From Fibrobacterota bacterium (GTDB lineage: Bacteria > Fibrobacterota > Fibrobacteria > UBA11236), in the NCBI GenBank assembly GCA_023249635.1, contig JAHFCH010000003.1, positions 36,617 through 100,616 of the forward strand: a stretch of 64,000 nt of DNA, given 5' to 3'. Under the pieces are notes generated by a model. That model did no database searches, was not told the DNA's origin, and saw only the letters and a program-made list of their open reading frames with translations. A program made the position numbers and the translations under genes. Shown here one piece after another: positions 21,736 through 57,893 of the stretch. Numbering within the stretch: the first letter of the stretch is position 1; each line of letters opens with the position of its first letter.

Positions 21736-23028
21736 TTACAACCCTTTCCGGAATCCGGCTAAACGCTCCACCGCCAGGGCCAAGGTCTCTTCCTTCTTGC
21801 AAAAGCAGAACCGCAGCTTATGGGCATGCGCGCCCATGCCCTTTGGCCCGCCTTTCGCCTTGTAGAACGAACTGCCCGGCACGGCCGCCACCTTGGTTTC
21901 CGCGACCAGGTAACGCGCGAGTTCCGTGTCGTCGCGGAACCGGCCCCGGCTTCCCTTGATTACGTCCGCTACGTCGGCCATCACGTAGTAGGCCCCGCGC
22001 GGCACATGGCAGCGGAAGCCCGCCGCCTCCAGCCCCGACACGATGAAATCGCGGCGCGTGCGGTAATGCTCCGCCAGATCCCGATAGAACTCCGGCCCCA
22101 ATCCCAGGGCCCCGCGCACGGCCTCCTGCAACGGCGTGGCCGCGCACACAGTCATGAAGTCGTGCACCTTGCGCAGCCCGTCAGTGATGGATTCATGGGC
22201 CACCGCCCAGCCTACGCGCCAGCCCGTGATTCCGTAGGTCTTGGAGGCGCTGCCGATCGTCACGGTGCGATCCTCCAAGCCGGCGATCGAGGCCGGGCTC
22301 ACGTGTACGGCCCCATCATAGAGGATATGCTCGTAGATCTCGTCCGAGAAAACCCGCGTGTTCCACTTTTGGCACAGCTTGGCGATCAGGACAAGTTCGT
22401 CCCGGGTGAAAACCTTGCCGGTGGGATTATGCGGCGTGCAGATCACGATGGCGGCTGTCTTGGGGCCGAATGCGCGCGCCAACTCCCGCTCATCGATGGA
22501 CCAATCCGGCTCGCGTAATGTCACGTAAACCGGCTTGGCCCCGCTGAGGTAGGCATCCGGATGGTAGTTCTCGTAGAACGGCTGGAAGAGGATGACTTCT
22601 TTGCCGGGATCGAGGGACGACATGAAAGCGCAAATCATGGCCTCGGTGGCGCCGCAGGTCACGGTAACGTTTTTGTCCGCATCCGCCTTGATCCCATTGT
22701 ACTCGCCAACCTTCTTGGCGATGGCTTGCCGTAATGCCGGCATGCCCCAGGTGACCGAGTATTGGTTGTAGTCCGCGTCCACGGCGGCGCGGGCAAGATC
22801 CTTAAGGACCGGGTCGCAGGGGAAATCGGGAAAGCCTTGGGCCAGGTTGACGGCGCCATGCAGATGGGCCATGCGCGTCTGCTCGCGGATGACCGACTCG
22901 GTGAAATCCCTCAGGCGCAAGGCCGGGACCATGGCGGCGAGTGCCGGGGCGGCTTTCGCCGACCGCTGGGATTTGGATTTGGAACTAGGCTTGGGCTTGG
23001 GCTTGGTCTTAGGCTTGGGCATCGGCAA
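21736..23028 (-). CDS. PLP-dependent aminotransferase class I/II (kynurenine/methionine aminotransferase-like) with Lys/Pro-rich N-terminal extension
   Basis: VNLAQGFPDFP, CTPHNPTGKVF and SASKTYGITGWRVGW (PLP lysine) are present. The N-terminus MPMPKPKTKPKPKPSSKSKSQRSAKAAPA is histone-H1-like; the true start could be the internal MVPALRL (~22932). Confidence 0.85.
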   Translation of the reverse strand: MPMPKPKTKPKPKPSSKSKSQRSAKAAPALAAMVPALRLRDFTESVIREQTRMAHLHGAVNLAQGFPDFPCDPVLKDLARAAVDADYNQYSVTWGMPALRQAIAKKVGEYNGIKADADKNVTVTCGATEAMICAFMSSLDPGKEVILFQPFYENYHPDAYLSGAKPVYVTLREPDWSIDERELARAFGPKTAAIVICTPHNPTGKVFTRDELVLIAKLCQKWNTRVFSDEIYEHILYDGAVHVSPASIAGLEDRTVTIGSASKTYGITGWRVGWAVAHESITDGLRKVHDFMTVCAATPLQEAVRGALGLGPEFYRDLAEHYRTRRDFIVSGLEAAGFRCHVPRGAYYVMADVADVIKGSRGRFRDDTELARYLVAETKVAAVPGSSFYKAKGGPKGMGAHAHKLRFCFCKKEETLALAVERLAGFRKGL

Positions 23029-28565: not shown

Positions 28566-30491
28566 TTGGCCTCCGTATCGGACGTTATGCAGGGGAATTC
28601 AAAAAGCGTATGCGAGCGCGCCTGGGGGGCCTTTTATGGCGCATGCCTGGCCGCCTCGCTCTGCCTCACCGCCTGCGCCCCCACCCATCCGCCCCGGCCT
28701 CCCGAAGGCTTCTCCTCCTATGGTCCCGGCGAGGGCCGCGACCCCGTCGACCTGCTGGCCGACTCGGTGTGGTGGGAAGCGAATACCCGGCGCGACGTAA
28801 ATTCATTGGAACAGCGCCAGGTCTCCTGGTACCGGGTCAACCATCGCAATCCCCCCCTGGCCGAGACTGTGGAGATTTTCGAGGATGAAACCACGGAAAA
28901 GGATCTACGCATCCGCGTGGACGCCTTCGCTCCGGACGGCAGCCGCTGGTCCGCCGACCCCATCCGATTCACCCGGGCCCGGGCGCGCATCGATGGGTAC
29001 TTCACCAGCAACCAATTCCGCCACGCCGCGCGTATTCCCGGCTATCGCGAGGGCATGCTCATCCGCGTGGAAGCGCATCGCACCATCGTGCGACCGGAGT
29101 TCCGCGGGGGAGAGCCCTTACGCGGAGCCTTCGCCTGCCGCACGCGCTTCGCATCGTTCCGGGCCCCGGAGGGCACCGCCTATTCCGCCGGCGTAGTGAA
29201 TCCCGAAGGCCTGCCGCTGCGCATGGAAGGCGATTCGGGTCCGGGATGGCGGGAAATCCGCGTCACCGCGGACGGCCTGGCCCCCATGCCCGCCTTGGGT
29301 CAGCCGGCCCCGGAGGGCGGGTATTCCGCTTTACGCTTCTCCGTGCCCCCGCAAGGCCCGCGCTCCTGGGACTGGAGCCGTCTAGGGGATCATTACCTGG
29401 GCATGATCGGGAAGGATGCCGAGGGCGACGCGCAGGTGCGCAAGGCCGCGTCCGGACTCACCGGCGGGGACCCCGAGTCCCTGGCCCGCTCCGCCTTCCG
29501 CCTGGTGCAGTCACGGGTACGCTACCTGGCCGACGAAGAACGCATGAACGCCTATGTACCGCGCGCCCCTGGCCGCGTGCTCGCCAACGGCTACGGGGAT
29601 TGCAAGGAAATGGCCAACCTGATGCGCGCCTTGCTGGCGGCCCGCGGCGTGGCGGCGGATCTGGCGCTGTCCCAACCGGCCGATGCCGCACCGCTTTCCA
29701 ACGCCTACCCCTCACTGGCCGATTTCAACCACATGGTACTCTCGCTCGCGCAGCCGGACGGTTCCCGGCTCTGGTTCGATCCCACCGTAGGCGCCGCCGG
29801 TCCGCCGGAATCCTACCTGCCCCTGCTCGCCCGGGAAACCTTGTTGCTTAGGCCCGGGGGCTCCGCCCCGGATTCCGTGCGGCCCGCTCCCGGCTACCGT
29901 AACCGGGCCGTTACCGTATCGCGGCTGGGACCGGAACGCGGGGGCCATTGGATCCTGCGGGGCGAGATCGGGCTCAAGGGCAAGGCCGCTTTCGATCTCA
30001 ACCAGGAACTGCGCTTCCGCCACCCGGGTCCCGCCGAGGCGCGCGCCGCGGTGCGGGCCTTCCTGGCGCGCAGCTTCGGCATCCAGGCTTCGGAATGGGA
30101 ATGGTCCTCGCCGTCACCCGATAGCGCGCGCATCGCCTACGCCATGCCCGCCGATGCCATGCTGGTGACCCTGGCCACCGGGGGCATCAAACTGGATGCG
30201 CCAACGCTGATGGGGCTGGGATCGGGGCTACGCGATGCGGGTCCGGAAGCGGGACGCAGCTTGCCCGCTTTCGAGCAGGAGGATTTATGGATCCTGCCGC
30301 CGGGCTACCGCCAATGGGAGACGCGCGGGTTCGCCCGCGAAGGAGCCACGGGCGAATGGCAATCTTCCGACGGCGGGGCGCGGCGCGCATTCCGTTGCAC
30401 GGCCCGAACCTGGAAGGCCGGAGATCAGGCCGGCCTGGACGGCTTCCTCGACGCTTTGACCGGCTTCACCCTGGCCTCGGTGTGGCAGTGA
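28566..30491 (+). CDS. DUF3857 domain plus transglutaminase-like cysteine protease domain lipoprotein
   Basis: Lipobox CLAASLCLTACAP. Transglutaminase core GYGDCKEMANLMRALLAARGVAADLAL (Cys), FNHMVLSL (His), WFDPT (Asp). The N-terminal ~250 aa resemble DUF3857. True start may be the Met at ~28587. Confidence 0.7.
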   Translation: MASVSDVMQGNSKSVCERAWGAFYGACLAASLCLTACAPTHPPRPPEGFSSYGPGEGRDPVDLLADSVWWEANTRRDVNSLEQRQVSWYRVNHRNPPLAETVEIFEDETTEKDLRIRVDAFAPDGSRWSADPIRFTRARARIDGYFTSNQFRHAARIPGYREGMLIRVEAHRTIVRPEFRGGEPLRGAFACRTRFASFRAPEGTAYSAGVVNPEGLPLRMEGDSGPGWREIRVTADGLAPMPALGQPAPEGGYSALRFSVPPQGPRSWDWSRLGDHYLGMIGKDAEGDAQVRKAASGLTGGDPESLARSAFRLVQSRVRYLADEERMNAYVPRAPGRVLANGYGDCKEMANLMRALLAARGVAADLALSQPADAAPLSNAYPSLADFNHMVLSLAQPDGSRLWFDPTVGAAGPPESYLPLLARETLLLRPGGSAPDSVRPAPGYRNRAVTVSRLGPERGGHWILRGEIGLKGKAAFDLNQELRFRHPGPAEARAAVRAFLARSFGIQASEWEWSSPSPDSARIAYAMPADAMLVTLATGGIKLDAPTLMGLGSGLRDAGPEAGRSLPAFEQEDLWILPPGYRQWETRGFAREGATGEWQSSDGGARRAFRCTARTWKAGDQAGLDGFLDALTGFTLASVWQ

Positions 30492-30492
30492 A

Positions 30493-32430
30493 ATGAAGCT
30501 TCCCCGCTCAGTCCTGCCGCTCGCCGGCGTGCTGCTCTCCCTGTTGCTGGCCGGCTGCGCGGCCCTGCGACCCGCGGGCGCGCCCTGGTATCGCGAAGTG
30601 GCATTCGCGCCTCCCGAGCTGGAAGCCGATTGGGCCCGCTATCACTGGTACGTCGCCGACGTGAAATACGATTTCCGCACCCGGGACGCGGACGAAGACG
30701 GCTACCATGGCCCGCTCTCGTACGCGGATATCTATCTGGTGGTCAAGGCCCTCACCGAAGAAGGCTCCCAAATCGGCACGCTCAACATCCCCTATTGGAA
30801 CCAGAACATCCATTCCATGGATGTGGTACTGCTCGATTCGGCGGGGGCCAAGGTGCCCGTGGATCAAGCCGCCGTGCTCGCCACCTACCGCGAGAAGGGC
30901 GCCGTGGTGCTCCCGCGCGTGACCCGCGGCAGCGTGGTGGCCTTGCATATCCGCCAGGGACCGTTCATGGTACTCGACTATTGGGAATACCCGATGCAGG
31001 GGCTGGTACCCACCTTTAACAGCCGCTTCCGCTTCGCCTACCCAAAACGCCTGCGTTACTCCTGGCGCGGCTATAATGGCCTGGCCGATCCCATTGCGGA
31101 CACCAGCCGTAACGGCTTGGTTACCCTGACCTGGCAGGCGGGGCGCATTCCGCCTCTCGACGATGTACCCTTCCTCGATCCCGCCGGGGCCCGTCCGCGG
31201 CTGGCCATCACCAGCGCCAACGGCGCGCTGGGACAGGGCTTTCCGGATTGGAAGACGGTGGCCGATTTCCGCTCCAAGGAACACTTCGCGGCCAGCGGTC
31301 CCGCCCATGCGGCCAAGGCGCGGGCCTTGGCCCAGGAGCTGACCGCGGGCGCGGCCGGCGATAGCGCCAAGGCCGATATCCTGCTTACCTGGGTGCAGGA
31401 CAATGTGGGCTGGGATCCCGAAGCCAAGCCCTCCCGGGAACCCGATGAGGTGGCCGAACTTCGGCAAGGCGACCTGTGGCAATTGTCGGCGCTCCTGCGC
31501 GAGATGTTCGAAGCGGCAGGGCTGGAAAGCGAAATCATCCTTACCCGCGGCCGGGACCAGGGCGGTTTCGATCCCTATATGGTCACGCCCAATGCGGCCT
31601 GGGAACCGGTGGTATCGGTGCGCGTGGACGGCCGGGAGTGGGCGGCCATGCCCCATGCGCGGTCTTACGGCCTGGGCGACTATCCCGCCACCCTGTACGG
31701 ACTCCATGGGCTTTCCCTGCGCAGCCGCGGCTGCCGTCTGCTCCCCGCCCCGCGTTACCCCGCCGCCGTGGTGCGCATCGATCAGGAACCCCAGCTCACC
31801 CAGCAGCGCGAGCGCCCCGTCTCCGTGACGCTGGACGGCCCCTGGGCCGGCATGGCCCGCACCGACTGGTACGATGGGCATTGGCCCGACCTGGCGGCCT
31901 TCTGCCGCTCCTTCCTTACCGATCTCGGATTCTCGGCCCCCATCCTCACCTGCTCGGAGCGCGATATGCAGGCGCGCAATCGTCCGTTGGTGCTCGACCT
32001 GACGGTAGAGGGCGGCGGCGCCTTCGCGGAACGCGGAGGCGTACGGCAGGCCGCCTACGCCAATCTCTTCTCGCGACCGGCGTGGTTCTACGACAGCGCC
32101 CGGAGCGACGCCTATTATTTCCCCTTTGCCCAGGTGCGGCGCGAAACCGCCGTATTCCACCCCGCGGCCGGTTCCCGCTTGGAACTGGAAACGCATTGCT
32201 CGGAATCCCGGGACGCGCTTCCGCGCGTGACCTGTCTTCGTCAAGATGGCGTGGATAGCGTAGCATTCACGCGGGAGACGCGCTTCCCCGCGGGCCGCGT
32301 GGAGGCGCAAGAGTTGCGCGATCGGCAGCGGGCTTTGGCGGATCTGGACGGGCTGAGGGATGTGCGCGCGACGCTGAAGCCGGTGCCGCCGTCGCGTCCG
32401 GGCGGTCTGGTTACCCGGCTGCCGGAATAA
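30493..32430 (+). CDS. DUF3857/DUF3858-like lipoprotein (partner of the transglutaminase-like protein)
   Basis: Lipobox LSLLLAGCAAL. 645 aa. Starts 1 nt after the upstream stop (TGAAATG). Same pairing architecture as Bacteroidota DUF3857/transglutaminase gene pairs. Confidence 0.55.
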   Translation: MKLPRSVLPLAGVLLSLLLAGCAALRPAGAPWYREVAFAPPELEADWARYHWYVADVKYDFRTRDADEDGYHGPLSYADIYLVVKALTEEGSQIGTLNIPYWNQNIHSMDVVLLDSAGAKVPVDQAAVLATYREKGAVVLPRVTRGSVVALHIRQGPFMVLDYWEYPMQGLVPTFNSRFRFAYPKRLRYSWRGYNGLADPIADTSRNGLVTLTWQAGRIPPLDDVPFLDPAGARPRLAITSANGALGQGFPDWKTVADFRSKEHFAASGPAHAAKARALAQELTAGAAGDSAKADILLTWVQDNVGWDPEAKPSREPDEVAELRQGDLWQLSALLREMFEAAGLESEIILTRGRDQGGFDPYMVTPNAAWEPVVSVRVDGREWAAMPHARSYGLGDYPATLYGLHGLSLRSRGCRLLPAPRYPAAVVRIDQEPQLTQQRERPVSVTLDGPWAGMARTDWYDGHWPDLAAFCRSFLTDLGFSAPILTCSERDMQARNRPLVLDLTVEGGGAFAERGGVRQAAYANLFSRPAWFYDSARSDAYYFPFAQVRRETAVFHPAAGSRLELETHCSESRDALPRVTCLRQDGVDSVAFTRETRFPAGRVEAQELRDRQRALADLDGLRDVRATLKPVPPSRPGGLVTRLPE

Positions 32431-33544
32431 CGACTGCCGCGGCTTGCGGCGCCCGATTCCGCTTCAAGGCACGGTTGCCCAACTGGCCGCATGCCGCCAT
32501 TGCATCCTTCCCCTTGGTCCCCCGGACGCGGCAGTACTGTCCCGCCTCCATCAGCCAATGGAAGAAATCCGCCGTATCGGTCTTGTCGGGCCGGGCGAAG
32601 GGCGAGTCGAGGCGGGGGTTGTACGGGATCAGGTTCACGCAGGCCTTGAGGCCCTTCAGGTATTCCGCTACCTCCAGCGCATGCGCGCGGGTATCGTTTA
32701 CGCCCTTTATCAGCACGTACTCCATGAACAGGAAATCGCCGCGCCGGGCCAGCGGAAAATCCAGCAGGGCGGCCTTGAGTTCGGCCAGCGGCCATTGCCG
32801 GTTGATGGGCATGATGCGCGAACGCACTTCGTCGTTGGGAGCGTTGAGGCTCACCGCCAGGCGAAGGCGGGAGAAGCCTTCGGGGGGCGGCTGGGCGGCC
32901 AGGGCCGCCAAACGACGGATGCCGTCCACATGCCCGACGGTGGAAATGGTTATCGAGGATTGCCCGATGTTGAGACCACGTTGATCGGAAAGGATGCGCA
33001 CCGCCTGCAGCACGTTGTCCAGGTTGTCCATCGGTTCGCCCATGCCCATGAACACCACGTTCTCGATGGGCTCCTTGAGCACATGCCGGGCCACCATCAC
33101 CTGGGCGACGATTTCCCCCGCATCCAGGCTGCGCAGGTAGCCCATCTGGGCCGTCTCGCAGAAGGTGCAGCCCATCTTGCAGCCCACCTGGGAAGAGACG
33201 CACAGGGACTTGTATTGGCGCATGGGGATAATGACGGATTCGCATTCGTAGCCGTCCCGCAGCTTGAGCAGGAACTTGTACGTCTCGCCATCGCCGGAGC
33301 GACCGGAGATTTCCGGCAGGCTATAGGCGAAGGCATCGCGGACCTTGGCGGCCAGAGAGGGGTTGGCGGCGAATTCCGGGAGCGGACCGGGATCGTCGGC
33401 GCCGCGCCGGTAGAGGGATCGGAAGAGGGCGCCCGCGTGGTATTCCCCTTTGCCGAAGCGGCGCGCGAACTCGGCGGTCAGGCCGGCGTAGTCGTAGCGG
33501 AGGATATCGTCGGGGCCGGTAAGGGCCGCGGGGGCGGAAGACAT
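32411..33544 (-). CDS. rlmN: 23S rRNA (adenine2503-C2)-methyltransferase, radical SAM (RlmN/Cfr family)
   Basis: Radical-SAM cluster motif CVSSQVGCKMGCTFCETAQMG (CxxxCxxC), plus FMGMGEPMDN and the conserved GIRRLA...NAPND blocks of RlmN. Confidence 0.85.
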   Translation of the reverse strand: MSSAPAALTGPDDILRYDYAGLTAEFARRFGKGEYHAGALFRSLYRRGADDPGPLPEFAANPSLAAKVRDAFAYSLPEISGRSGDGETYKFLLKLRDGYECESVIIPMRQYKSLCVSSQVGCKMGCTFCETAQMGYLRSLDAGEIVAQVMVARHVLKEPIENVVFMGMGEPMDNLDNVLQAVRILSDQRGLNIGQSSITISTVGHVDGIRRLAALAAQPPPEGFSRLRLAVSLNAPNDEVRSRIMPINRQWPLAELKAALLDFPLARRGDFLFMEYVLIKGVNDTRAHALEVAEYLKGLKACVNLIPYNPRLDSPFARPDKTDTADFFHWLMEAGQYCRVRGTKGKDAMAACGQLGNRALKRNRAPQAAAVVIPAAG

Positions 33545-33605
33545 CTTCCTGATCTACCTAAATCCGCCGCGCCTTCCGAATGCGCCCGGTTGGGGATTTT
33601 GGGGG

Positions 33606-34313
33606 TCAGGCATCCAGGGTAAACGGCGTGAAGCGGGTCTTGCGATCGTAGAAGTCTTCGCTCTCGGCCCGCTTGAGAAAGCCAACCACCCGGTAGGTCA
33701 CCGGCGTCATCACCACTTCCCACCCGGTCTTGAGGAAGTACTGCATCACCGTCACCTTTAATACGTCCCCGGTGGCCCAGATGCCGGCGAAGGCGATGAA
33801 GTAGAACAGGGACGAGTCCACGGCTTCGCCGACCAAGGTCGAGCCGATGGTGCGCACCCATAGCCATTTTCCTTCGGTGCGGATCTTGAGCTTGGCCAGC
33901 ACGAAACTGTTGGCGAAGCTGCCGGACCAGAAGGCGATCATGGAACCCGCCGCGATTCGCCAGGCATTGCCGAAAACGCCTTCCAACTGACCCTGGTACG
34001 ACTTCATCCAATCGCTCTGCGCGGCGGGCAGATGTACCACCACCCAGGCCATGAGGGATGCGAAGGCCAAGGCGCCGAAGCCCGCCCATACCACGCGGCG
34101 GTCCCGCGCGTAGCCGTACACCTCGGTGAGGATATCCCCAAAGATATACGAGATAGGGAAGAATAGGACCCCGGCCCCGAAGGTCACGGTTCCCAGAATG
34201 GGAAAGGTCACGGTTGCCTGCTTGGCCGCGCCGATGAAATTGGAGCAAAGGAGCACGGTCACGAAGGCGGCCATCACCAGGTCGTAGTATTTGTAGGTAC
34301 GGTGTTTATCCAT
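33606..34313 (-). CDS. yhhQ: queuosine precursor transporter (YhhQ / VUT family, DUF165)
   Basis: YDLVMAAFVTVLLCSNFIGAAK...FPISYIFGDILTEVYGY...VWAGFGA are characteristic of YhhQ/VUT. 6 TM. Confidence 0.75.
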   Translation of the reverse strand: MDKHRTYKYYDLVMAAFVTVLLCSNFIGAAKQATVTFPILGTVTFGAGVLFFPISYIFGDILTEVYGYARDRRVVWAGFGALAFASLMAWVVVHLPAAQSDWMKSYQGQLEGVFGNAWRIAAGSMIAFWSGSFANSFVLAKLKIRTEGKWLWVRTIGSTLVGEAVDSSLFYFIAFAGIWATGDVLKVTVMQYFLKTGWEVVMTPVTYRVVGFLKRAESEDFYDRKTRFTPFTLDA

Positions 34314-34341
34314 GGACTCTCTCTGTGGTCGTTGCTTCGTT

Positions 34342-34430
34342 AGGTTTAAGGTTAAAGGTTTAAGGTAGGTAGGTCTCGTAGGCCCGGTCGGGTCGCCCCC
34401 TTAAACCTTAGACCTTAGACCTTAAACCTT
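34342..34430. repeat. intergenic long imperfect hairpin whose two arms are tandem 7-nt repeats (AGGTTTA-like / CCTTARA x4)
   Basis: Left arm aggtttaaggttaaaggtttaaggtaggtagg (34342..34373). Right arm ccttaaaccttagaccttagaccttaaacctt (34399..34430). Outer 10 bp pair perfectly. GC-rich loop tctcgtaggcccggtcgggtcgccc. Lies between the rnhA stop and the yhhQ start. AT-rich in a high-GC genome. Confidence 0.6.
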
Positions 34431-34439
34431 TCTTCGTTT

Positions 34440-34904
34440 TCACCCATACCCCTCATCCACCGCCAGCTCCGCTCCCGCCGCCGCCGCATTCGCGAGTTCG
34501 TCGCAGCGTTCGTTCTCGGGGACTCCCGAATGGCCTTTGACCCAGGCGAAGCGCACGTCGTGGCGCGAGCACAGGTCCAGCAGGCGTTCCCATAGATCGG
34601 GATTCATGGCCATCTGCTTATCGGGTTTGCGCCAGCCGTTGCGTTTCCACTTCTGGGCCCAGCCCTTCTCCACGGCGTCGACCACGTATTTGGAATCGGA
34701 GTGGAGCAGCACGCGGCTGCGGGCCTTAAGGGCTTCCAGGCCGGCGATGGCGCCCATCAACTCCATGCGGTTGTTGGTGGTGCGCTTGTAGCCGGCGCTC
34801 AGTTCCTTGCGGTTGTCCTTGTACAGGAGCACGGTGCCGTAGCCGCCGGGGCCGGGATTGCCGAGGCAGGCGCCGTCGGCATAGATCGTGATGAGTTCAT
34901 CCAC
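34440..34904 (-). CDS. rnhA: ribonuclease HI
   Basis: [44 protein letters not shown]...NERCDELA match the RNase H catalytic DEDD context. Confidence 0.9.
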
Positions 34905-34931
34905 CCCTGAAAAGCTAGAAAATCAGGCCCC

Positions 34932-35639
34932 TCAACCCCACTTCACGCGCGCGATGCCGGGGCAGGCGGTGAGGTTCTCGACCACTTGGCGTGAAAGCGA
35001 TATGACGTCGTTGCGGCGCATCTTCACGTCGCAATGCAAGGTGCGGCAGTTGCCCGCCACATCGTAGTCGAGGGCGATGCGCTGTATGCGCACGCCGGCG
35101 TCTTCCAGCTTCTTGCGGATCTCATCATCGCTGATTCCGTTCAGTCCCAGCACCACGGTCACGGTGCAGTAATAGTCCTTCTTGACATGCGCCTCCATAT
35201 GCGGCATCGCATAGAGCGCGAAGGTGGCGATGCCTGTGCCGATAACGCCGATGGCGATATGCCCGCTGCCGAAGGCGAGTCCGAGGATGGTGATGAACCA
35301 CAGCACCGCCGCCGTGGTCACGCCGCGCACCAAGGTGCCCTGGCGTATGATGGCTCCCGCACCCAGGAAGCCGATGCCCGTAAGGATGCCGGCCGCCAGG
35401 CGGGCCCGGTCGGGACGCATCATTCCGGCGGCCTGGTTGAAGCTTTCGCGGTAGAAATCCTCGGAGAGGATCATGGCCAGGCACGAAGCCACGCACGCCA
35501 AGATGGTGGTTTTGAGCCCCGCGGCCCGTCCATGGCTTTCCCGCTCCAGCCCTAAGACCAAACCGGCCGCCATCGCAAAACCTATCCGAATCAACACATC
35601 TTTGAGGTCCAAAGCCGTAACGGGATTCAAAATCGCCAT
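34932..35639 (-). CDS. MgtC/SapB family membrane protein
   Basis: IRIGFAMAAGLVLGLERE...GLKT signature of MgtC, with the C-terminal ACT-like soluble domain. Start at internal Met MAILNP (35639), not the track's 35798. Confidence 0.8.
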   Translation of the reverse strand: MAILNPVTALDLKDVLIRIGFAMAAGLVLGLERESHGRAAGLKTTILACVASCLAMILSEDFYRESFNQAAGMMRPDRARLAAGILTGIGFLGAGAIIRQGTLVRGVTTAAVLWFITILGLAFGSGHIAIGVIGTGIATFALYAMPHMEAHVKKDYYCTVTVVLGLNGISDDEIRKKLEDAGVRIQRIALDYDVAGNCRTLHCDVKMRRNDVISLSRQVVENLTACPGIARVKWG

Positions 35640-35736
35640 CCTTTCCTCAGGTAACCTTGATTTTAAGCCTCCCCGCGACGGAAAACAACCACCCGAGGTC
35701 CCGGTTCCGGATAAAAAAATCTGAAAAATAGTTGCA

Positions 35737-36330
35737 TTGGGACTTGCCCCGCAAAAATGGTGTAATGGTAAAATGGTGGCGGAGGAGAAACTCCCCATGA
35801 AGATGCCAGCACATATTTCCCCGTGGTTGAACGATGAAGAACTTGCGGCCTGGGTGCGCGAAGCGCCAACCCAGGATGCCTACAAAAAGAGGCTGGCCAT
35901 CTGGCTGACTCGCCGCGGTCCGTTCCACGCGCATAAGGTTTCCGAACTGTTGCAGGTTTCCAAGCAGGCCGTGTGGCTTTGGATCAAGCAATACAACCAG
36001 GGCGGCCCGGACAGCCTGGACCGCAAGGGCCGGGGCGGCCGCCGCCGGGCCTATCTCTCCCTGGACCAGGAGCGCGCCTTGGTGGAGCGCCTGCAATCCC
36101 AGGTCGCGAAGGGCCAGGCCCGTAAGGCCAAGGAGCTCCTTCCCGAAGTGCTCGAGGCGGTGGGACAGAACGTGTCCGTCGCTTACGTGTACCGCTTGAT
36201 GCAGCGGCATGAACGCCGTCGAGGGCCCTCGGCCGCCAAACCCATGCGTAAGTTGGACGGCGAAACCGAAATGTCCCCCATACCGGTACAGCCCGGTACG
36301 GGCATGCCGGTCCAGAATCCGGTTGCCTGA
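35737..36330 (+). CDS. helix-turn-helix domain protein resembling the N-terminal HTH part of IS630-family transposases (no DDE domain)
   Basis: LLQVSKQAVWLWIKQYNQGGPDSLDRKGRGGRRRAYLSLDQERALVE resembles the winged-HTH of IS630/Tc1 OrfA (VS..TVYRW..RY...G...L.DR.RSGRP..L). No catalytic domain follows. Start ambiguous (M1, M13, M21 or M23). Confidence 0.45.
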   Translation: MGLAPQKWCNGKMVAEEKLPMKMPAHISPWLNDEELAAWVREAPTQDAYKKRLAIWLTRRGPFHAHKVSELLQVSKQAVWLWIKQYNQGGPDSLDRKGRGGRRRAYLSLDQERALVERLQSQVAKGQARKAKELLPEVLEAVGQNVSVAYVYRLMQRHERRRGPSAAKPMRKLDGETEMSPIPVQPGTGMPVQNPVA

Positions 36331-36575
36331 TCCGGAAAAATCCGTTTTCCCCTCTTGATCCACCGTCGTGGGGTTTTACGCCCCGCGATGGCGATCCTTC
36401 CACACCTGTTAACCTGCCGGTAACGGCCATCCGCATGTTTCCCCCGCCCTGGGAGCCCCGCTCCTGTTAGGCTGCGCGCCGCCCGCATTATTTACCCTTG
36501 TTTGCCCCATCTATGTTGGATCGTGTTCAACGTGACGAATCACTTACGAATTGATCACTCCGGATTTCAGGCGCG

Positions 36576-36591
36576 AAACGCATTTGCGTTT
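36576..36591. promoter_or_regulatory. 7-2-7 inverted repeat AAACGCA-TT-TGCGTTT followed by TATATATAT, ~70 bp upstream of the UbiA-family gene
   Basis: Perfect inverted repeat read directly; an AT-rich -10-like tract follows immediately. Candidate operator plus promoter. Confidence 0.3.
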
Positions 36592-36658
36592 ATATATATT
36601 CCCGCAAAGAACACAGGGCGAACGGTCGCGCCCTGCATCGCATTCCGGAGGGAACCTT

Positions 36659-37543
36659 ATGCATTCCATCAAAGCGCACATGCGGGAGTTGAAAGCGCCT
36701 TTCGTCCTCATCTATCTCTCGCTGATGGGCTTCCTGTGCATCTATTCCGTACAGCGTTACCTGCACCTTCGCTTCGAGCCGATGAGCTGCCTCAGCTTCA
36801 TGGGTATCATCTTCGGCGTGTATACCCTCAACCGCTTCACGGATACGGCCGAGGACTTCACCAACGATATCGGCCGCCTGCTCTTTTTCCAACGCAAGCG
36901 CAGCTTCCTCGCCATCGCAATCCTGTCCTTGGCCGCGAGCATGGGCTTCCTGCTGTGGGCCGAAAAGCTGAATTGGATGCATTGCCTGCTGCTCGCAATG
37001 GGTTTCGCCTATTCCTACCGCGTGGTTCCCTGGTTCGATCGGGCCAGCGGTTTCCAGCTCCTGCGCATCAAGGAAATGACCTTCCTCAAGAACCTATCGG
37101 TCTCGTTCCTGTGGGGCGCCGCGGTCTTCGTGGTGCCCATCGCCTATTCCGGGATCGTCGCTTTCGACCATAAGATGGTCTGGCTGCTGGCTTCGGGTCT
37201 CTTCGTCAGCACTTTCAACAACACCCTATTCGACGATATCCTCGACGAAGCCGGTGATCGCGTCGCGGGCATCAAGACCCTGCCCACCACCTGGGGCGTG
37301 CGCCGCTCCGAGTTCATGCTCATGGCCCTGGATCTGGTTTGGCTGGGCGCGGTAGCGGCGCTGTATTCAGCGCGCCACGTCGATGGCGCCCACGCCCTAT
37401 TCCTGGCGTTCTTGGGCATATACCCGTTCTTCTACCTGGTTCCGCATCTCCGCACCAAAACCAATAAGGGTTGGATCGACCTTCTGGCCGAAACCGATTT
37501 GCTGTTTTTCGCGGTGGGAATGCTCTTGCTCAGCTTCCGCTGA
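36659..37543 (+). CDS. UbiA-family prenyltransferase
   Basis: First Asp-rich motif NRFTDTAEDFTND and second FDDILDEAGDRVAGIKTLP, with ~8 TM segments. Start at internal ATG 36659 (MHSIKAHMREL). Confidence 0.75.
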   Translation: MHSIKAHMRELKAPFVLIYLSLMGFLCIYSVQRYLHLRFEPMSCLSFMGIIFGVYTLNRFTDTAEDFTNDIGRLLFFQRKRSFLAIAILSLAASMGFLLWAEKLNWMHCLLLAMGFAYSYRVVPWFDRASGFQLLRIKEMTFLKNLSVSFLWGAAVFVVPIAYSGIVAFDHKMVWLLASGLFVSTFNNTLFDDILDEAGDRVAGIKTLPTTWGVRRSEFMLMALDLVWLGAVAALYSARHVDGAHALFLAFLGIYPFFYLVPHLRTKTNKGWIDLLAETDLLFFAVGMLLLSFR

Positions 37544-37544
37544 G

Positions 37545-39329
37545 TCACCTGGCCAGGTGGTACTGGCGCTCTTTGATGCGGCCGCGGGGGCCGCTCTTCC
37601 GCAACATCCGGTTCAACACGTATTCTTCCGAGAAGATTTCCGGCCGGTTGCCCCGCCCGTGATCCAATACGTAGACGTTGCGCGCATGGTGCGAGACCAG
37701 GCATAGCTGCGGGAACATTGCCAAGCGGGTGAACTTTTCCGCCATGGTGCGTGCGCTGACCAATACCGTGACCAGATCGGGATTGAACTCCGGTCCTTCG
37801 AGATCTTCCACGCTCTGCACGATGCTCGGATTGACGCGGATGTTCTGGAACACGCGGATCAGATCGGGCATATTGTCCATGCCGTCCTTGACCACCACTA
37901 TCGGATGCTTCTGCGTCGCGTCCTCGTCCAGGTTCTGGGCGTATACCGGAAAGGTCATGATGAGCTTGAGGCCATGCTCGCCTTTCTTGGCGAGGTTCTT
38001 GGAGTAGGCGCTGATGCGGCCGCCATGGCTTTCCACGATGGTACGGGTTATCGACATGCCGAGACCCGTGCCGCCGTTGGCTTTTTTCGTGGTATAGAAG
38101 GCCTTGAACAGGCTTTCCAACTGCTCCTTGTCGCAGCCCACGCCGTTGTCTTCCACGCTCGCGAGGATCAGGGTATCGGTCGTGGATACCCGGATGCGGA
38201 TGTTGACGGCGTCGCCGCCCACGGCTTCGAAGCTGTTGTTGAAGATGTTTACGAACACCTGTTCCAGCTTGCCCCAATCCCCATGCATGAACCAATCCCG
38301 TTCGAGGCCGGTAAGCGTAAACGCGGCGCGGCGCGAAGGGTAATGCTTATCAATGGTCCCCTTGATCAGTTCGGCCAGGTTCACCGGATGCTTTTCGCGC
38401 AGCACCTCGGTGCGCGAGAGCTTGAGGATGTCGTCGCTGAAATCGGTGAGTCGCTCCACGGAGGTGACGATGTTCTTCACGATTTCCTTACCCTTATGGG
38501 ATAAGGCCTCGACCTCCTGGAGGATCTGCGCGTTGCCCGCGATCATGAACATGTAGTTCTTGATCTCGTGGTTGATGATGGCGGTCGATTCCCCCAACTG
38601 CTTGAGAGCGGTCACCTGCTCCAAGTCCCGGTAGGCCGTTTCCAGCTTGTCGAAATTCGTCTGGCGCTCGCGCAGGATCATCAGGAAGCGTTCGGCGAAG
38701 ATGAGCGATGCCATGATGCCGAAGGCGAGCACGCCCAACACCGTGAAGCTGGTGAGGATCTGCTTCATCATCCCCATCAGGATGCCGATGTCTGCGAGGC
38801 CGCCTAGGATAAGGATCGCGAAACCGAACAGGTGGAACCGCAGGATGCGTTTCTCCGGCGCAGCGCATTTGTTGATGCGTTTGAGAATCACGTAATGGGC
38901 GGTGAAGATGTAGAAGACCACGTAGGGCAGGAAGGCCAGGTAGTATCCGAGGGTGGTGACGACCTTACCGCCCTCCGCGACAATCATCAGGCTGCTCTGG
39001 AAGGCCGCAGCGAGCAGGGAACTCACCGTGATCAGGAAAGGGATGGTTCGTAGCAGCGGGGAATTGGTGAGGATGCAGAGGTACCACAGGGAGAAGGGAA
39101 TGAAGATGCACGCGATGCCGTGATAGGCCCGCTGCCAGAAGACGTTTTGCGCCAGAGTCGCCGCGTAAGGAATTTGCCAGATATCGATGGCCGTCATCGC
39201 GCAGAGCAGGATTAAGGAAACACCGAAAAAGCGGAAACTTCTGTCGAAGTGGGTGCGGAGGTCAAGCAGAATGAACAGCAGGCCGACTGCGAAAAGAAAA
39301 GAGCAAATCACCTGCAACAGTACGTTCAC
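37545..39329 (-). CDS. sensor histidine kinase with polytopic N-terminal membrane sensor domain
   Basis: ~6 TM N-terminus. HisKA-like H box ESTAIINHEIKNYMFMIAG. HATPase_c DNGVGCDKEQLESLFKAFYTTKKANGGTGLGMSI. Extra ~120-aa C-terminal region. Codon usage looks less GC-rich than its surroundings. Confidence 0.8.
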   Translation of the reverse strand: MNVLLQVICSFLFAVGLLFILLDLRTHFDRSFRFFGVSLILLCAMTAIDIWQIPYAATLAQNVFWQRAYHGIACIFIPFSLWYLCILTNSPLLRTIPFLITVSSLLAAAFQSSLMIVAEGGKVVTTLGYYLAFLPYVVFYIFTAHYVILKRINKCAAPEKRILRFHLFGFAILILGGLADIGILMGMMKQILTSFTVLGVLAFGIMASLIFAERFLMILRERQTNFDKLETAYRDLEQVTALKQLGESTAIINHEIKNYMFMIAGNAQILQEVEALSHKGKEIVKNIVTSVERLTDFSDDILKLSRTEVLREKHPVNLAELIKGTIDKHYPSRRAAFTLTGLERDWFMHGDWGKLEQVFVNIFNNSFEAVGGDAVNIRIRVSTTDTLILASVEDNGVGCDKEQLESLFKAFYTTKKANGGTGLGMSITRTIVESHGGRISAYSKNLAKKGEHGLKLIMTFPVYAQNLDEDATQKHPIVVVKDGMDNMPDLIRVFQNIRVNPSIVQSVEDLEGPEFNPDLVTVLVSARTMAEKFTRLAMFPQLCLVSHHARNVYVLDHGRGNRPEIFSEEYVLNRMLRKSGPRGRIKERQYHLAR

Positions 39330-39353
39330 CGTGGGACCCTAACCTGGAAGAGA

Positions 39354-39430
39354 GGAGGTCGTCTGTTGATAACCTGGGGAATACTACTATGCAAGTTGTT
39401 GATACGTCAAGGGACAAGCTGTTGATAGCT
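39354..39430. promoter_or_regulatory. three perfect TGTTGATA direct repeats (plus one TATTGATA) and a GATAGCTAT element upstream of the histidine kinase gene
   Basis: TGTTGATA at 39354, 39387 and 39410. GATAGCTAT at 39414..39422. Sits 25-90 bp upstream of the kinase start (39329) in an AT-rich tract. Confidence 0.3.
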
Positions 39431-39441
39431 ATTGATAAGCA

Positions 39442-39945
39442 TCAAATAGCACTAGCATCTGTAAGTATCGCCGCTTCTTGTAAGGGCTGCTCAAGCAGAA
39501 CTTTCAGTTTTTCGAAACTGCGTTTCATTTGCCCGCGAAAGGCCCATGCAGAGATGGATTTCAGGAAAATGAAAACGCCGCCAGGAGTGATATCGGCACT
39601 GTATTTCAAACATGTGCCATCGGCCGTGGTTTCGAGCCGGAATTCCTCACGGTAGGCATTGTTGCCCGCTTTGCCTTGATTGCGAAAACCCGCGTCGGGT
39701 TCCAGGGAAATGATTTCGGAATAATCGACAAGGGAATTCCAGAGCAGGAATTTGTGCACGGTTTTGATGCGCGTGCCTTTTTTCCACGGCCCGGCATCCA
39801 ATTGTTGGATGGAGGCGATGCCTTCCTGCCAGCGGGCGAAATTCCGCACGTCGGTAAGGAAGGCGAAGACCTCGGCAGGCGATCGACGGATGGAAACCTC
39901 CAGCCGGATGGCTACGGCGTTCGCGGCTTGTGCTGCTTGTGGCAT
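39442..39945 (-). CDS. SRPBCC (polyketide cyclase/dehydrase-like) family protein
   Basis: VFAFLTDVRNFARWQEGIASIQ opening and overall ~165-aa architecture of Polyketide_cyc2-like proteins. Start uncertain; overlaps the downstream JmjC gene end. Confidence 0.55.
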   Translation of the reverse strand: MPQAAQAANAVAIRLEVSIRRSPAEVFAFLTDVRNFARWQEGIASIQQLDAGPWKKGTRIKTVHKFLLWNSLVDYSEIISLEPDAGFRNQGKAGNNAYREEFRLETTADGTCLKYSADITPGGVFIFLKSISAWAFRGQMKRSFEKLKVLLEQPLQEAAILTDASAI

Positions 39946-40757
39946 GCGCAATTCCCTTTCCGGTAAAGCCCCGCAAGATGCAAAGCGTGTTTGACCGCGC
40001 CGGGCAAACCGCGCAGCAACGTGTCATCAATGCCGAAGCCGAAGCAGCTCACCGAAATGGAAGTTTCCAATCCCAGCACATCGTGCCACCAACCGCGCGG
40101 GGTGAACAACGTGTCGCCTGCCGATACCACGACCTTGGTCCCCATCGCCCTGGAGAAAAGGGGATGGCGGGCCGCATCGGGATTGCGCGCATCCACTTCG
40201 GAAAGGACCGAACCGATATCGTATTTGCGGCCCGGGTAAAGCCAGGCGGATTGCGCCGGCGGATACAGGGTGAATTCCTTGGAGCCATGGAATACGGAGA
40301 AAAGATTATCGGCGATATCGTAGTGCAGGCCGGTATAAGAACCGGCCGGGCCGATCCAGCCCACCGGGAATTTGAGCCGGCCGCGCCAGTACGAGAAATC
40401 CACGTCGGCGCGGAGCTCCGGGAAGGCGGCGAAGAGATCGAAGTAGGCCAGATAAGGCAGGCCCTCGGCGACGGCGACATTCCCTTCCGCCCCACCCCCT
40501 TCGCGAAGATGCCGCATGTACTTCCCCAGATCCCATTCCGAGTACCGAGGGGTTTCCTGCAATACGTTTCCGTATTCGATACGCACGGTCTTATGGGCGC
40601 CGATACGTTCGAAGTAGCCGGGAGTCCATTTGGCCAGGGCCGGCCAGGATTCGAGCAGGCCGGTGAGTATCACGGGTTTGCGGGCCGGAAGGATTTCCGC
40701 CAGAAACCGGCGGCGATCAGGTTTGTGGATGCGGTCGATTTCATCCATTAGGGCCAT
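39912..40757 (-). CDS. JmjC/cupin-like (Cupin_8) 2-oxoglutarate/Fe(II) oxygenase family protein
   Basis: HYDIADNLFSVFHGSKEFTLYPP...WWHDV contains the HxD...H iron-binding cupin motifs of JmjC-domain hydroxylases. Confidence 0.65.
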   Translation of the reverse strand: MALMDEIDRIHKPDRRRFLAEILPARKPVILTGLLESWPALAKWTPGYFERIGAHKTVRIEYGNVLQETPRYSEWDLGKYMRHLREGGGAEGNVAVAEGLPYLAYFDLFAAFPELRADVDFSYWRGRLKFPVGWIGPAGSYTGLHYDIADNLFSVFHGSKEFTLYPPAQSAWLYPGRKYDIGSVLSEVDARNPDAARHPLFSRAMGTKVVVSAGDTLFTPRGWWHDVLGLETSISVSCFGFGIDDTLLRGLPGAVKHALHLAGLYRKGNCACHKQHKPRTP

Positions 40758-56196: not shown

Positions 56197-57704
56197 GGGG
56201 CCCGCGGGGTCCGGAAACGCGCTGGCAGCAGGCCGCGCAGTTCGGCGGGCCGGAGCATCCCCGTCACGAAAGGCAGCAGCCAGAAGGCGGCCAGGGGTCC
56301 CAGGCGCATGCTCCACGTAAAGCGTTCGGGTTCCATCTGTACGCCCGTTCCGAAGGCCCAACCGGCCGCCAGCCAGCCGAGCAGTGGGAGCATACGCGGC
56401 CAGCGGATGGCGATGGGGAAGAGTTGCTGGCTTTTGCGGGTGATCAAAACAGCGATCACAAGGTAACATACGATGGCGGTGAGCGTCGCTCCCCACAGGC
56501 CCAGCGCCGGGATGAGCAGGAAATTCCCCGCCAGGGTCACGACCACTCCCGCGCCGTTTATCCACATCAGGTGCCGGGTCTGCTTGGCAAGGTAAAGACC
56601 CAGGGTGAAATTCACGACCCAGGCCTGGGCCAGGTAGGCCAGCAGCACGCCGGGAACGATTTCAAGCCCGGGCCAATAGGCAGGGGCGATGAGAGGACGG
56701 CCGGCGATGGGCAGGGCGACGAGCTTATCGAGGAAGGCCATCAGGGTAACGGCCGCGTAACCTACGGCGGTGAGGAAATAAAACAACACGCGTCCGAACA
56801 GGTCCGCGGCGTCCGCGTCCTTGTGGCGCTGCTGGAAGAAAGGCTGCCAGGCCATGCGGTACATCTGTACCAGCAGCAATCCGAACACGCCCAGCTTCCA
56901 CGCGGCCGAGAAGATGCCCGCCAGTTGCAGCACGTCGTAGCCGCGCCCCGGGTACAAGCGCTCGATGTCTTCGGGCTTGATCATGCGCATGAATACGCGC
57001 CCCGCCATCTCGTTGACGATGCCATAAAGCCCCGCCGGCACCAGGGGCAGGCCGAAGCGGAGCAGCGAGGCGAACACCTCGCGCCGCGGGGCCGAGAACG
57101 CATTGCGGCCCAGCACCGGGATCTGCGCCAGGACGGTAAGCGCGCTGGCGACCAGGTTGGCGAGGAAGACGCCCTCCAGCCCCATGCGCCATTTGAGCAC
57201 GAAGACCAGATTGGCCGCGATGTTCACCGCCACGTTACCCAAGCGCAAGGCCGCGAACCGAGTGGGCCGATGCTCCAACCGCAGATGGGCGAAAGGGACC
57301 ACCGTCAGGGTGTCAAGCACGAGGATGGCGGCGGAATAGTAGAAGAGGGACCGGCTGGCGGCGGGGATGAGGAACAGCTTCGCCAGGGGCCCGGTCACCA
57401 CCAGCAACGGCAGGGAGAACAGCATCGATCCGACGGCCTGCCCCCAGAAAGCGCTCGCGAACAACCGCTTGCGCCCGGCCGTATCGGCATCGTTCGCCAA
57501 CCGGAGGTAGGCCGAGTCGAACCCGAATTGGTAGACGATGTTGAGGAACGCGATCATGGCGAACAGAATGTTCTGGATGCCGAAATCGGAGGGCAGCAGC
57601 ACGTGGGTGTAGAAAGGGACCAGGAGGAAATTGAGGAAGCGGCTGGCGATGGAGGAAACGCCGTAGATCAGGGATTCCTTCGCGAGGGCGCGGATGCGGC
57701 TCAA
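56193..57704 (-). CDS. MOP-superfamily polysaccharide biosynthesis/flippase protein (Wzx-like)
   Basis: 503 aa with ~14 TM segments. N-terminal LAKESLIYGVSSIASRFLNFLLVPFYTHVL is typical of Polysacc_synt (Wzx/MurJ-like) proteins. Confidence 0.7.
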   Translation of the reverse strand: MSRIRALAKESLIYGVSSIASRFLNFLLVPFYTHVLLPSDFGIQNILFAMIAFLNIVYQFGFDSAYLRLANDADTAGRKRLFASAFWGQAVGSMLFSLPLLVVTGPLAKLFLIPAASRSLFYYSAAILVLDTLTVVPFAHLRLEHRPTRFAALRLGNVAVNIAANLVFVLKWRMGLEGVFLANLVASALTVLAQIPVLGRNAFSAPRREVFASLLRFGLPLVPAGLYGIVNEMAGRVFMRMIKPEDIERLYPGRGYDVLQLAGIFSAAWKLGVFGLLLVQMYRMAWQPFFQQRHKDADAADLFGRVLFYFLTAVGYAAVTLMAFLDKLVALPIAGRPLIAPAYWPGLEIVPGVLLAYLAQAWVVNFTLGLYLAKQTRHLMWINGAGVVVTLAGNFLLIPALGLWGATLTAIVCYLVIAVLITRKSQQLFPIAIRWPRMLPLLGWLAAGWAFGTGVQMEPERFTWSMRLGPLAAFWLLPFVTGMLRPAELRGLLPARFRTPRAP

Positions 57705-57759
57705 GAGTCCGCCGTGGTCTGTACTTCGTTCGTCGGGCGTACAGCGCGAAGCGCGCCTA

Positions 57760-57870: not shown

Positions 57871-57893
57871 ATACGCTCATAGATCCGGAAAGC

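Follow-up and report, generated by a model that had tools for sequence, protein, structure and literature searches.

Hairpins with tandem-heptamer arms in gene spacers of a Fibrobacterota bacterium and its relatives

Of all long simple-sequence repeats, tandem repeats with a unit of seven nucleotides are over-represented the most in many bacteria. Their excess has been ascribed to polymerase slippage (PMC4692102; PMC4679880), and period 7 is described as dominant among intergenic repeats with units of 5-11 nt (Mrazek et al. 2007, as cited in PMC4679880 and PMC4692102). Pairing of heptamer arrays in inverted orientation is already known in bacteria as well: in Xanthomonas campestris and X. axonopodis, where one genome-wide unit, GGGNATC, makes up ~180 arrays, ~70-75 inverted GGGAATC pairs per genome lie in a conserved gene context and vary in length (PMC4692102, Rehm et al. 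2015). These pairs are the closest precedent for the structures described here, and no cause or function has been demonstrated either for their inverted pairing or for the heptamer excess. The present study concerns two hairpins, E1 (34342-34430) and E2 (57726-57872), in a stretch of 64,000 nt from a Fibrobacterota bacterium (assembly GCA_023249635.1, contig JAHFCH010000003.1); this whole stretch is called the window in the following. Both have arms of tandem heptamers and lie between genes of the minus strand. We tentatively read them, with a confidence just short of an even chance, as palindromic heptamer microsatellites, which would have grown by slippage, would form a long stem-loop that lacks a U-tract in the transcript of an operon, and would play a role in RNA processing or stability.

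The REP/BIME and REPIN elements and the Correia/NEMIS MITEs (miniature transposable elements with inverted repeats) of Neisseria are co-transcribed extragenic palindromes whose stem-loops stabilize upstream mRNA or are cut by RNase III. E1 and E2 would work most plausibly like these stem-loops, but such families are high in copy number and conserved in sequence, carry a GTAG/CGTC tag or a TA duplication, and have a cognate transposase, none of which was found in the DNA examined here. A heptamer array as the arm of a long hairpin in an untranslated region (UTR) has its best-documented counterpart in Haemophilus influenzae, where the (ATCTTTC)n array of hmw1A and hmw2A is one arm of a long 5'-UTR hairpin, a target of RNase III that is required for repeat-number change (PMC12721329, Rapun-Araiz et al. 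2025). Our evidence, by comparison, is in silico, with transcription deduced from the operon context; moreover, hmw combines a single repeat arm with a G-rich region in a 5'-UTR behind a promoter, and its phase variation is proven, whereas both arms of the hairpins studied here are arrays, in an operon-internal position, and are known from sequence alone. The cyanobacterial short tandemly repeated repetitive (STRR) and GGGGAYT sequences and the TAACTGA repeats of Beggiatoaceae are likewise intergenic with a period of 7. They are mostly direct, however (inversion is seen in only one of ~170 TAACTGA sets, and pairing in few of those from Nostoc), whereas nearly every clean heptamer array in the Fibrobacterota loci is one half of an inverted pair.

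The likeness to the Xanthomonas pairs is closer. In both cases, intergenic arrays of 2 to ~5 units (at least 2 in ours) follow one another in convergent orientation, G-rich and then C-rich, and can form a stem-loop; they lie mostly between co-directional genes, <50 nt from a stop or start codon, and are mostly transcribed, as the operon context suggests for ours; and their gene context is conserved between species while length and sequence vary. Unlike the Xanthomonas pairs with their one unit, the hairpins in this other phylum, Fibrobacterota, have a unit of their own at each locus, and two of them (E1 and L013a, introduced below) are A+T-rich and lack the potential to form a G-quadruplex (G4). 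Nor do they share the single GGGNATC unit with at least four G3 tracts, since E2 has four GGG tracts of a different unit and E1 has GG only. Co-variation of the arms between lineages, which we show below, is unaddressed in the Xanthomonas paper (PMC4692102). A literature search on repeats in Fibrobacteres found nothing. The design class itself has been reported before; to it, the present hairpins add the locus-specific units, the arm co-variation at one orthologous spacer and the array starts at stop codons.

Tandem arrays were located with Tandem Repeats Finder (TRF) and inverted repeats with a separate search of the whole window, and fold z-scores were computed against dinucleotide shuffles for each strand of E1 and E2. 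A purpose-written detector, which reports a tandem array whose reverse-complemented unit recurs as an array <=200 nt away, was applied to the window and all fetched loci (numbered L001 and upwards), which took in ~317 kb of Fibrobacterota and 1.2 Mb of Betaproteobacterial DNA; the fetched loci amount to ~1.5 Mb. The nearest relatives of the window by YhhQ and flippase sequence are metagenome-assembled genomes labelled Fibrobacterota, Fibrobacteria or Fibrobacteres; beyond L001 and L002, DNA identity to these relatives is only ~73-83%. Within the window, E1 and E2 rank first and second among all inverted repeats and are the only period-7 arrays with at least 2.5 clean copies.

E1 occupies the spacer between rnhA (34440-34904, minus strand; RNase H of 154 aa, assigned by PF00075 and its open reading frame (ORF)) and yhhQ (33606-34313, minus strand; a queuosine-precursor transporter of the Vut_1 family, 235 aa, assigned by PF02592 and homologs). 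It begins 9 nt past the rnhA stop and ends 28 nt ahead of the yhhQ ATG. On the transcribed minus strand, the 5' arm (34399-34430) comprises 4.6 copies of an AAGGTYT heptamer (TRF period 7, 92% matches), which read on the plus strand as CCTTAAA CCTTAGA CCTTAGA CCTTAAA CCTT with a TRF consensus of CCTTAAA. The 3' arm (34342-34366, minus strand) is made of CCTTWAA heptamers (TRF period 7, 88% matches), on the plus strand AGGTTTA AGGTTAA AGGTTTA AGGT, for which TRF gives AGGTTTA in 3.6 copies. The arms can pair in two registers that lie 6-7 nt apart, 34342-34366/34405-34429 and 34342-34365/34399-34422, each with 88% complementarity. Between them lies a G+C-rich central region (34367-34398, minus strand) with a mini-hairpin, CCCGGTCGGG, at 34383-34392, which is apparent from the sequence and which RNAfold predicts as an inner stem on both strands; on the plus strand the core holds three GTAG words. 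The arms have a G+C content of ~32-38% and the 25-nt center (34374-34398) one of 76%, against a window mean of ~62%, and the loop measures 25-38 nt. The plus strand of the whole element (34340-34432) reads ttAGGTTTAAGGTTAAAGGTTTAAGGTaggtaggtctcgtaggcccggtcgggtcgcccCCTTAAACCTTAGACCTTAGACCTTAAACCTTt. Past the stem, the minus strand continues as AACGAAGCAACG without a U-tract, and only the antisense strand, the plus strand, has a U-rich tract, UUUCUUCGUUUUC. In all these points, i.e. an imperfect inverted repeat with A+T-rich heptamer arms around a G+C-rich 25-nt loop, a stem that can slip between registers, a position after the rnhA stop and before the yhhQ start on the same strand, and no canonical terminator, the sequence-only reading from which we set out holds. 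The hairpin also forms in a fold of the minus-strand transcript, but with -39.9 kcal/mol and z = -1.9 only, compared to -48.8 kcal/mol and z = -4.1 on the plus strand.

E1 is flanked on either side by the word AACGAAG, directly 5' of the element at 34432-34438 (as AACGAAGAA) and as a direct repeat of it directly 3' at 34335-34341 (as AACGAAGCA), both on the minus strand. The remaining 21 nt up to the ATG, CAACGACCACAGAGAGAGTCC (34314-34334, minus strand), lie outside the hairpin and are the native yhhQ leader: a 16-nt portion, ACCACAGAGAGAGTCC, is identical in Uliginosibacterium sediminicola (L046 9966-9981). Because E1 is identical base for base in two more independent assemblies, L001 and L002, i.e. 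in three assemblies in all, it is not an assembly artifact. By the same token, no variation in heptamer copy number was seen at E1 in L001 and L002, and no second copy of its core was found in the window beyond matches with 3 mismatches.

E2 lies in a 189-nt spacer between a metallophosphoesterase gene upstream (57894-58634, minus strand; ORF, with Metallophos Pfam matches in orthologs) and a gene for a Wzx-like polysaccharide flippase (Polysacc_synt) downstream (56193-57704, minus strand; PF01943, PF13440). Its 5' arm on the transcribed strand (57831-57872, minus) consists of four CGTCGGG units followed by CGTAAAGAAAAG and presents four GGG tracts at 4-nt spacing (TRF 57840-57870, period 7, 100% matches). 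The element contains a perfect 28-nt inverted repeat, 57760-57787/57831-57858, in which arrays of GGCGTCG (2.7 copies) and ACGCCCG (4.4 copies) allow three registers of 100% complementarity. The inner part of the 3' arm (57760-57787, minus), which emerged from both TRF and the inverted-repeat search, reads CTTTTCTTTACG and then two CCCGACG units. The 43-nt loop (57788-57830, minus) holds a GC mini-hairpin, GCGGCGGCTGCCGCC, at 57816-57830, seen in the sequence and in the folds; the GGGCGG beside its A-tract is kept in L096. The 3' arm is then interrupted by 20 nt (57740-57759, minus) with a further mini-hairpin, GCGCGCTTCGCGC, which is single-copy in the window and was delimited by alignment to L095, L096 and L097, and it resumes with an outermost unit, CGCCCGACGAACG (57726-57739, minus), which pairs with the outermost 5' unit in inverted repeats I6 and I13 and in the minimum-free-energy structure. 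A count of the word in the window places another AACGAAG at the 3' boundary (57724-57730, minus). The second element of the same design but unrelated sequence, which had been placed at 57760-57870, is hence real and slightly larger, by the extra arm unit at 57726-57739. Its folds stand out from the shuffles on both strands, with z = -8.9 for the minus strand, which is transcribed, and z = -7.4 for the plus strand. The minus strand continues past the stem as AACGAAGTACAG without a U-tract, and the outer stem has none on either strand. As an observation aside, plus-strand positions 57816-57839 inside E2, GCGGCGGCTGCCGCC followed by CTTTTCTTT, resemble a canonical intrinsic terminator directed against the flanking genes; the A-tract that matches the CTTTTCTTT region on the gene strand and the adjoining GGGCGG are both kept in L096.

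Neither hairpin belongs to a described family of RNA structures. A canonical rho-independent terminator on the gene strand can be dismissed, given arms of 32-38% G+C in E1, loops of 25-38 nt (E1) and 43 nt (E2), and no U-tract; a terminator scan of 30000-40000 did not report E1. An Rfam search of the whole window at the gathering score gave no match, and permissive scans gave sub-threshold matches only, namely noise from lncRNA and sRNA families at E1 and, at E2, miRNA precursors of a generic long-hairpin kind. The preQ1 riboswitch that one would expect upstream of yhhQ was not found in the window, and an Rfam scan of the L046 yhhQ leader was empty, too. Since the scans of the window, of both elements and of this leader gave nothing meaningful, we rejected a known RNA family or riboswitch.

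The design recurs in related genomes. In the ~317 kb of Fibrobacterota DNA, the detector found seven heptamer-armed hairpins: the two in the window, two in L013 (2857-2953 and 12476-12600; the pair is referred to as L013a and L013b), and one each in L083 (10738-10886), L096 (9765-9944) and L097 (2285-2399), the last three being loci that were chosen as E2 orthologs, which biases the density. The unbiased tally is two in 64 kb (window), two in 21 kb (L013) and none in ~180 kb of other relatives. An eighth, truncated copy of the E2 type lies at positions 1-78 of L095, a 1.7-kb contig that begins inside it; assemblers thus appear to break at such hairpins, which would lead to under-counting in metagenome-assembled genomes. 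Before the last four loci joined the sample, three of the five longest inverted repeats in Fibrobacterota loci were heptamer-armed; by comparison, period-7 arms were found in none of the 107 inverted repeats in the 1.2 Mb of Betaproteobacterial loci. The units vary by locus (AAGGTTT, CGTCGGG, RGTCGGG, NTAGGGG, GAAATNN, GTGGATA), and the G-rich array is the 5' arm in all seven hairpins. With five further examples in related Fibrobacterota, the recurrence within the window points to a class or mechanism and not to chance, as had been suggested from the window alone. L013a and L013b differ in context, with a U-rich tail between convergent genes and a far better fold on the strand that bears the tail, which also carries the G.U pairs.

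Three further structures came to our attention in these loci. L013 1362-1451 contains a perfect 19-nt inverted repeat with period-8 arms (TTGCTGTG / CAACACAA) and a G+C-rich mini-hairpin in its loop, an octamer analog with opposite G/C polarity. In L091, a nested palindrome of ~200 nt with non-periodic arms (GCGCTCGCTCGCGCGGGGTTGGGGC ... GCCCCAACCCCGCGCGAGCGAGCGC; 10895-11100) lies upstream of a Porin_O_P gene. Finally, an A-rich stretch with rough 7-nt periodicity in L083 (4562-4650) precedes a textbook terminator, AAAGGCCCGCTGGAAAGCGGGCCTTTTT, which implies that canonical U-tract terminators do serve elsewhere in these organisms.

The two spacers have had different histories. Between phosphoesterase and flippase genes, spacers with a heptamer hairpin measure 170-259 nt (window, L097, L096, L083), and those without one 6 nt (L094), 37 nt (L098) or 106 nt (L092), with the genes overlapping in L086. 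E2 and its counterpart in L096 are clearly homologous. Both have four NGTCGGG units, the GTAAAGAAAAGGGCGG A-tract (16/16) and a T-tract, and in both the 3' arm is interrupted before ...CTGTA and closes with a C(G/T)CCCGAC unit; over the 5' arm and inner stem, 40 of 45 nt are identical, at a coding identity of ~73% in the flanks. Where the unit has a variable position, the pair is C:G in the window and both A:U and G:C in L096, in matching order along both arms. The interruptions of the 3' arm in L095 and L096 are homologous, as is the mini-hairpin in L097, and L083 and L097 have NTAGGGG units at this locus instead. In a neighbor-joining tree of the flippases, in which L096 and L083 are sisters, hairpins of the GTCGGG type and of the TAGGGG type occur in both major clades. 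By these comparisons, E2 is old and has persisted across deep lineages while its unit changed and both arms changed together.

By contrast, no hairpin of the E1 type was found between rnhA and yhhQ in any of six syntenic relatives (L003, L004, L005, L006, L008 and L013), so E1 is recent in this lineage. Their spacers range from 14 to 100 nt, with 14-15 nt and a purine-rich ribosome-binding site in L003 and L005. Lack of conservation in relatives had been proposed as one mark of a fortuitous tract; E1 indeed fits this description, but as a rule it is too strict, given that E2 is conserved across deep lineages with co-varying arms. The spacer of L004 is filled, into the yhhQ start codon, by an A-rich direct heptamer array (GGAAAAT-like, ~5 units; 9965-9987) that has no inverted partner and may represent a precursor state of E1. 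Separately, the YhhQ protein of the window is 73-81% identical to proteins of Burkholderiales and Rhodocyclales, and the yhhQ gene with its leader looks horizontally exchanged; alternatively, some contigs labelled 'Burkholderiales' or 'Clostridia' (L007, L010, L011) may be mis-binned.

A possible mode of birth is suggested by the positions of the arrays, which start 0-9 nt past a stop codon in E1, L083, L013a and L013b. Furthermore, the GTCGGGN and TTAGGGG units resemble the conserved end of the upstream gene, ...TTGTCGGAAGGCCGTTAG, and in L013b GTGGGTAG comes after GGGGTAG. This is suggestive, and only suggestive, of arrays born by recurrent local amplification of a stop-proximal 7-mer; recurrent seeding in situ would explain why both unit types occur in both flippase clades.

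How such elements might arise and act can be outlined as follows. Each element comprises two oppositely oriented arrays of a heptamer, set around a core of 30-90 nt with a small G+C-rich hairpin in it. A 7-mer at or just past the stop codon of the upstream gene would be amplified by slipped-strand mispairing, and intrastrand template switching would produce the inverted copy. Since the two arrays can pair in all their registers, more slippage would be favored, and templated correction between the arms would keep them complementary while the unit drifts, a form of concerted evolution. We take the elements to be transcribed inside operons because the spacers in some relatives are tiny or the genes overlap. 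The operon mRNA would then carry a 22- to 40-bp stem-loop without a U-tract, at which only inefficient termination is expected; the stem would stop 3'-exonucleases and could be cut by a double-strand-specific RNase, for instance RNase III, and thereby the upstream and downstream cistrons would be uncoupled in stability and translation. In L013, where a U-rich tract follows the stem between convergent genes, the same design would act as a terminator. Among the functions originally considered, that of a transcript-processing or stability hairpin is the most plausible.

Several observations weigh against this interpretation. The sense-strand fold of E1 barely beats shuffled sequences, and in four of the five operon-internal elements (E1, L096, L083, L097) it is the antisense and not the sense RNA that has the better fold, their stem mismatches being A.C on the mRNA. 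We had considered selection on the sense-strand RNA stem through G.U wobble, and rejected it since the asymmetry ran in the opposite direction. This asymmetry is unlike the outcome of selection on an mRNA stem and would suit a neutral element or a process at the level of the DNA. Either account of the hairpins is thus possible, the mRNA stem cannot be claimed as the target of selection, and any RNA function is purely what we infer. No RNase III gene was seen among the genes of the window, which covers 64 kb of this genome, and the copy-number evidence spans the same 64 kb. The likeness between units and gene ends was noticed post hoc and concerns matches of 5-6 nt, each of them weak (estimated at ~0.03-0.14). 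Finally, the absence of E1 from all six syntenic relatives, together with AACGAAG on both flanks, would be explained equally well by an insertion.

This brings us to the flanking words. AACGAAG occurs four times in the window, and three of these occurrences, all on the minus strand, abut the two hairpins (34335-34341, 34432-34438, 57724-57730); target duplication, a re-entry point for template switching and coincidence are all candidate causes. CGAAG-like words also border the homologous elements of L096 and L092 and are found at the end of the upstream phosphoesterase gene. Direct repeats flank E1 (7/7, or 8/9) and, as a perfect 9/9 repeat, CGGTCTTTC, the hairpin in L097; none flank the other elements. 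Under a null model, repeats of at least 7 nt have P = 0.21 and those of at least 9 nt P = 0.027, so that L097 alone is marginal; with this exception the repeats lie within chance length and do not support a target-site duplication. A second potential link was the tail AACGAAGYAMMGACCACRG, which is identical at 15 of 19 positions between E1 and E2 and is the best such match in the window. We rejected it as a shared 3' tail of one mobile family: equal or better chance matches exist in the 1.5 Mb, and the tail of E1 is mostly the native yhhQ leader, of which 16 nt are identical in a betaproteobacterium. An nhmmer profile of five tails recruited no new members, and an unconstrained local alignment of E1 with E2 was not significant.

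Other features of the window are reported here for completeness. On the plus strand at 35737-36330, it encodes a 197-aa protein with helix-turn-helix (HTH) domains only (HTH_23/HTH_29/HTH_32), which is like the DNA-binding half of an IS630-type transposase without the catalytic domain; it is kept in the same position in L003-L008 and has probably become a domesticated regulator. Another product encoded in the window is a DUF4423 protein. At 22973-23020, 5.5 copies of the hexamer GGCTTG (alternatively of a 24-nt period) lie at the 5' end of an aminotransferase ORF (21736-23028); this array is probably a coding repeat.

Among the explanations that compete with a slippage-grown, operon-internal stem-loop, an unlikely one is that of a miniature mobile palindrome of the MITE, REP or REPIN kind, moved in trans by a transposase, with the heptamer arrays as its terminal inverted repeats and AACGAAG as target-site duplication or preferred target. 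It would account for the absence of E1 from six syntenic relatives with spacers of 14-100 nt, for AACGAAGAA and AACGAAGCA directly abutting the ends of its inverted repeat and three of four AACGAAG words touching the two elements, for the perfect 9-nt direct repeat CGGTCTTTC around the L097 hairpin, and for an arm type at the E2 locus that departs from the host tree; loops of 30-90 nt, moreover, are typical of MITEs and not of terminators. Yet, of the hallmarks of a MITE, terminal inverted repeats are present, but neither multiple copies nor a related autonomous element were found in the window and fetched loci. Each locus has its own unit, and no second or near-identical copy of an arm, core, mini-hairpin or tail turned up in the 64-kb window or the ~1.5 Mb of fetched loci, which also led us to discard a REP-like recurrence of the core mini-hairpins. 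GTAG occurs three times in the core of E1, and CGTC is part of the unit of E2, but not at the defined foot position of a REP or REPIN tag. No DDE transposase, Y1 transposase or RAYT gene is present among the window genes as annotated directly or by synteny, where the sole transposase-like gene is the HTH-only one, positionally conserved in relatives. Flanking repeats of 7 nt are common by chance and those of 9 nt marginal, as described above, the E2 locus has different direct repeats from one lineage to another, and the 3' 'tail' of E1 is native yhhQ leader. The REP/MITE-like element that was among the initial candidates is accordingly not supported by the window and the fetched loci.

The remaining alternatives are less probable still. 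A G4/hairpin switch or phase-variable 5'-UTR regulator, in which the G-rich 5' arm would either form a G4 or pair with the C-rich arm and the number of heptamers would set downstream expression, strikes us as improbable, despite the exactly four GGG tracts with 4-nt loops in the 5' arm of E2, the at least four G-tracts that L096, L083 and L097 keep through a change of unit, and the fact that the gene downstream of E2, a surface-polysaccharide flippase, is a typical target of phase variation. The hmw system of H. influenzae provides a precedent, the G-rich array is the 5' arm in all seven hairpins, and the Xanthomonas and Nostoc heptamers favor four units and form G4 in vitro (PMC4692102). However, a G4 is not general to the class, as E1 has GG tracts only and L013a none; yhhQ is not a contingency gene and E1 does not differ between three assemblies; a three-tetrad G4 should lose out to a perfect 28-bp duplex; and Rehm et al. 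found no regulatory role (PMC4692102). It is very unlikely that the hairpins function on the plus strand, opposite to the flanking genes, as intrinsic terminators or insulators against antisense transcription. Although the plus-strand RNA of E1 has the better fold and runs into U-rich UUUCUUCGUUUUC, although the plus strand of E2 has GCGGCGGCTGCCGCC followed by CTTTTCTTT, and although L013a and L013b are terminator-like on the strand with the G.U pairs and the U-rich tail, no plus-strand gene or promoter-like site lies upstream of E1 or E2, the 25-38-nt loop of E1 is far above that of terminators, and the outer stem of E2 is followed by a U-tract on neither strand. Heptamers are also read by proteins: NarL-type heptamers are bound on DNA, and HutP is a ring-shaped RNA-binding protein that reads UAG-N4 repeats. 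An array of binding sites for such a reader of 7-nt periodicity would suit the strict period, the UAG every 7 nt on the sense strands of L083 and L097, and the presence of a NarL-family regulator gene ~6 kb from E1. We give it very little credence, since the unit differs at every locus, which speaks against the sequence-specific protein-binding array envisaged at the outset, the units abut without helical phasing, and no candidate for the binding protein is linked to the loci, the case being one of resemblance to these systems. Lastly, a fortuitous low-complexity tract or assembly artifact, for which one could cite that E1 is single, unconserved at its locus and weak in its sense-strand z-score, is effectively refuted: no other inverted repeat of the window ranks above E1 and E2, the sequence of E1 is the same in three assemblies, five further independent assemblies contain the design and 1.2 Mb of control DNA lacks it, and E2 is homologous across lineages.

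Beyond the two hairpins, it is a real possibility, if on the unlikely side, that a lineage-wide and sequence-independent process repeatedly makes palindromic heptamer microsatellites at the 3' ends of genes, by amplifying a stop-proximal 7-mer, copying the array in inverted form and keeping the arms complementary as the unit turns over. The locus-specific units argue against a sequence-specific binding protein or a single mobile family, and the arrays that start at stop codons and resemble the adjacent gene end suggest how they may be born. If this is true, the hairpins would form a class of structural elements that is defined by design and not by sequence, and the same process could underlie the GGGAATC pairs of Xanthomonas and the heptamer excess that bacteria show in general; the polarity, conserved with the G-rich arm first, would then point to a directional mechanism coupled to replication or transcription. 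If confirmed, the Fibrobacterota hairpins would offer a tractable natural series for the origin and maintenance of palindromic microsatellites, and for a role of such elements in RNA processing or insulation inside operons.

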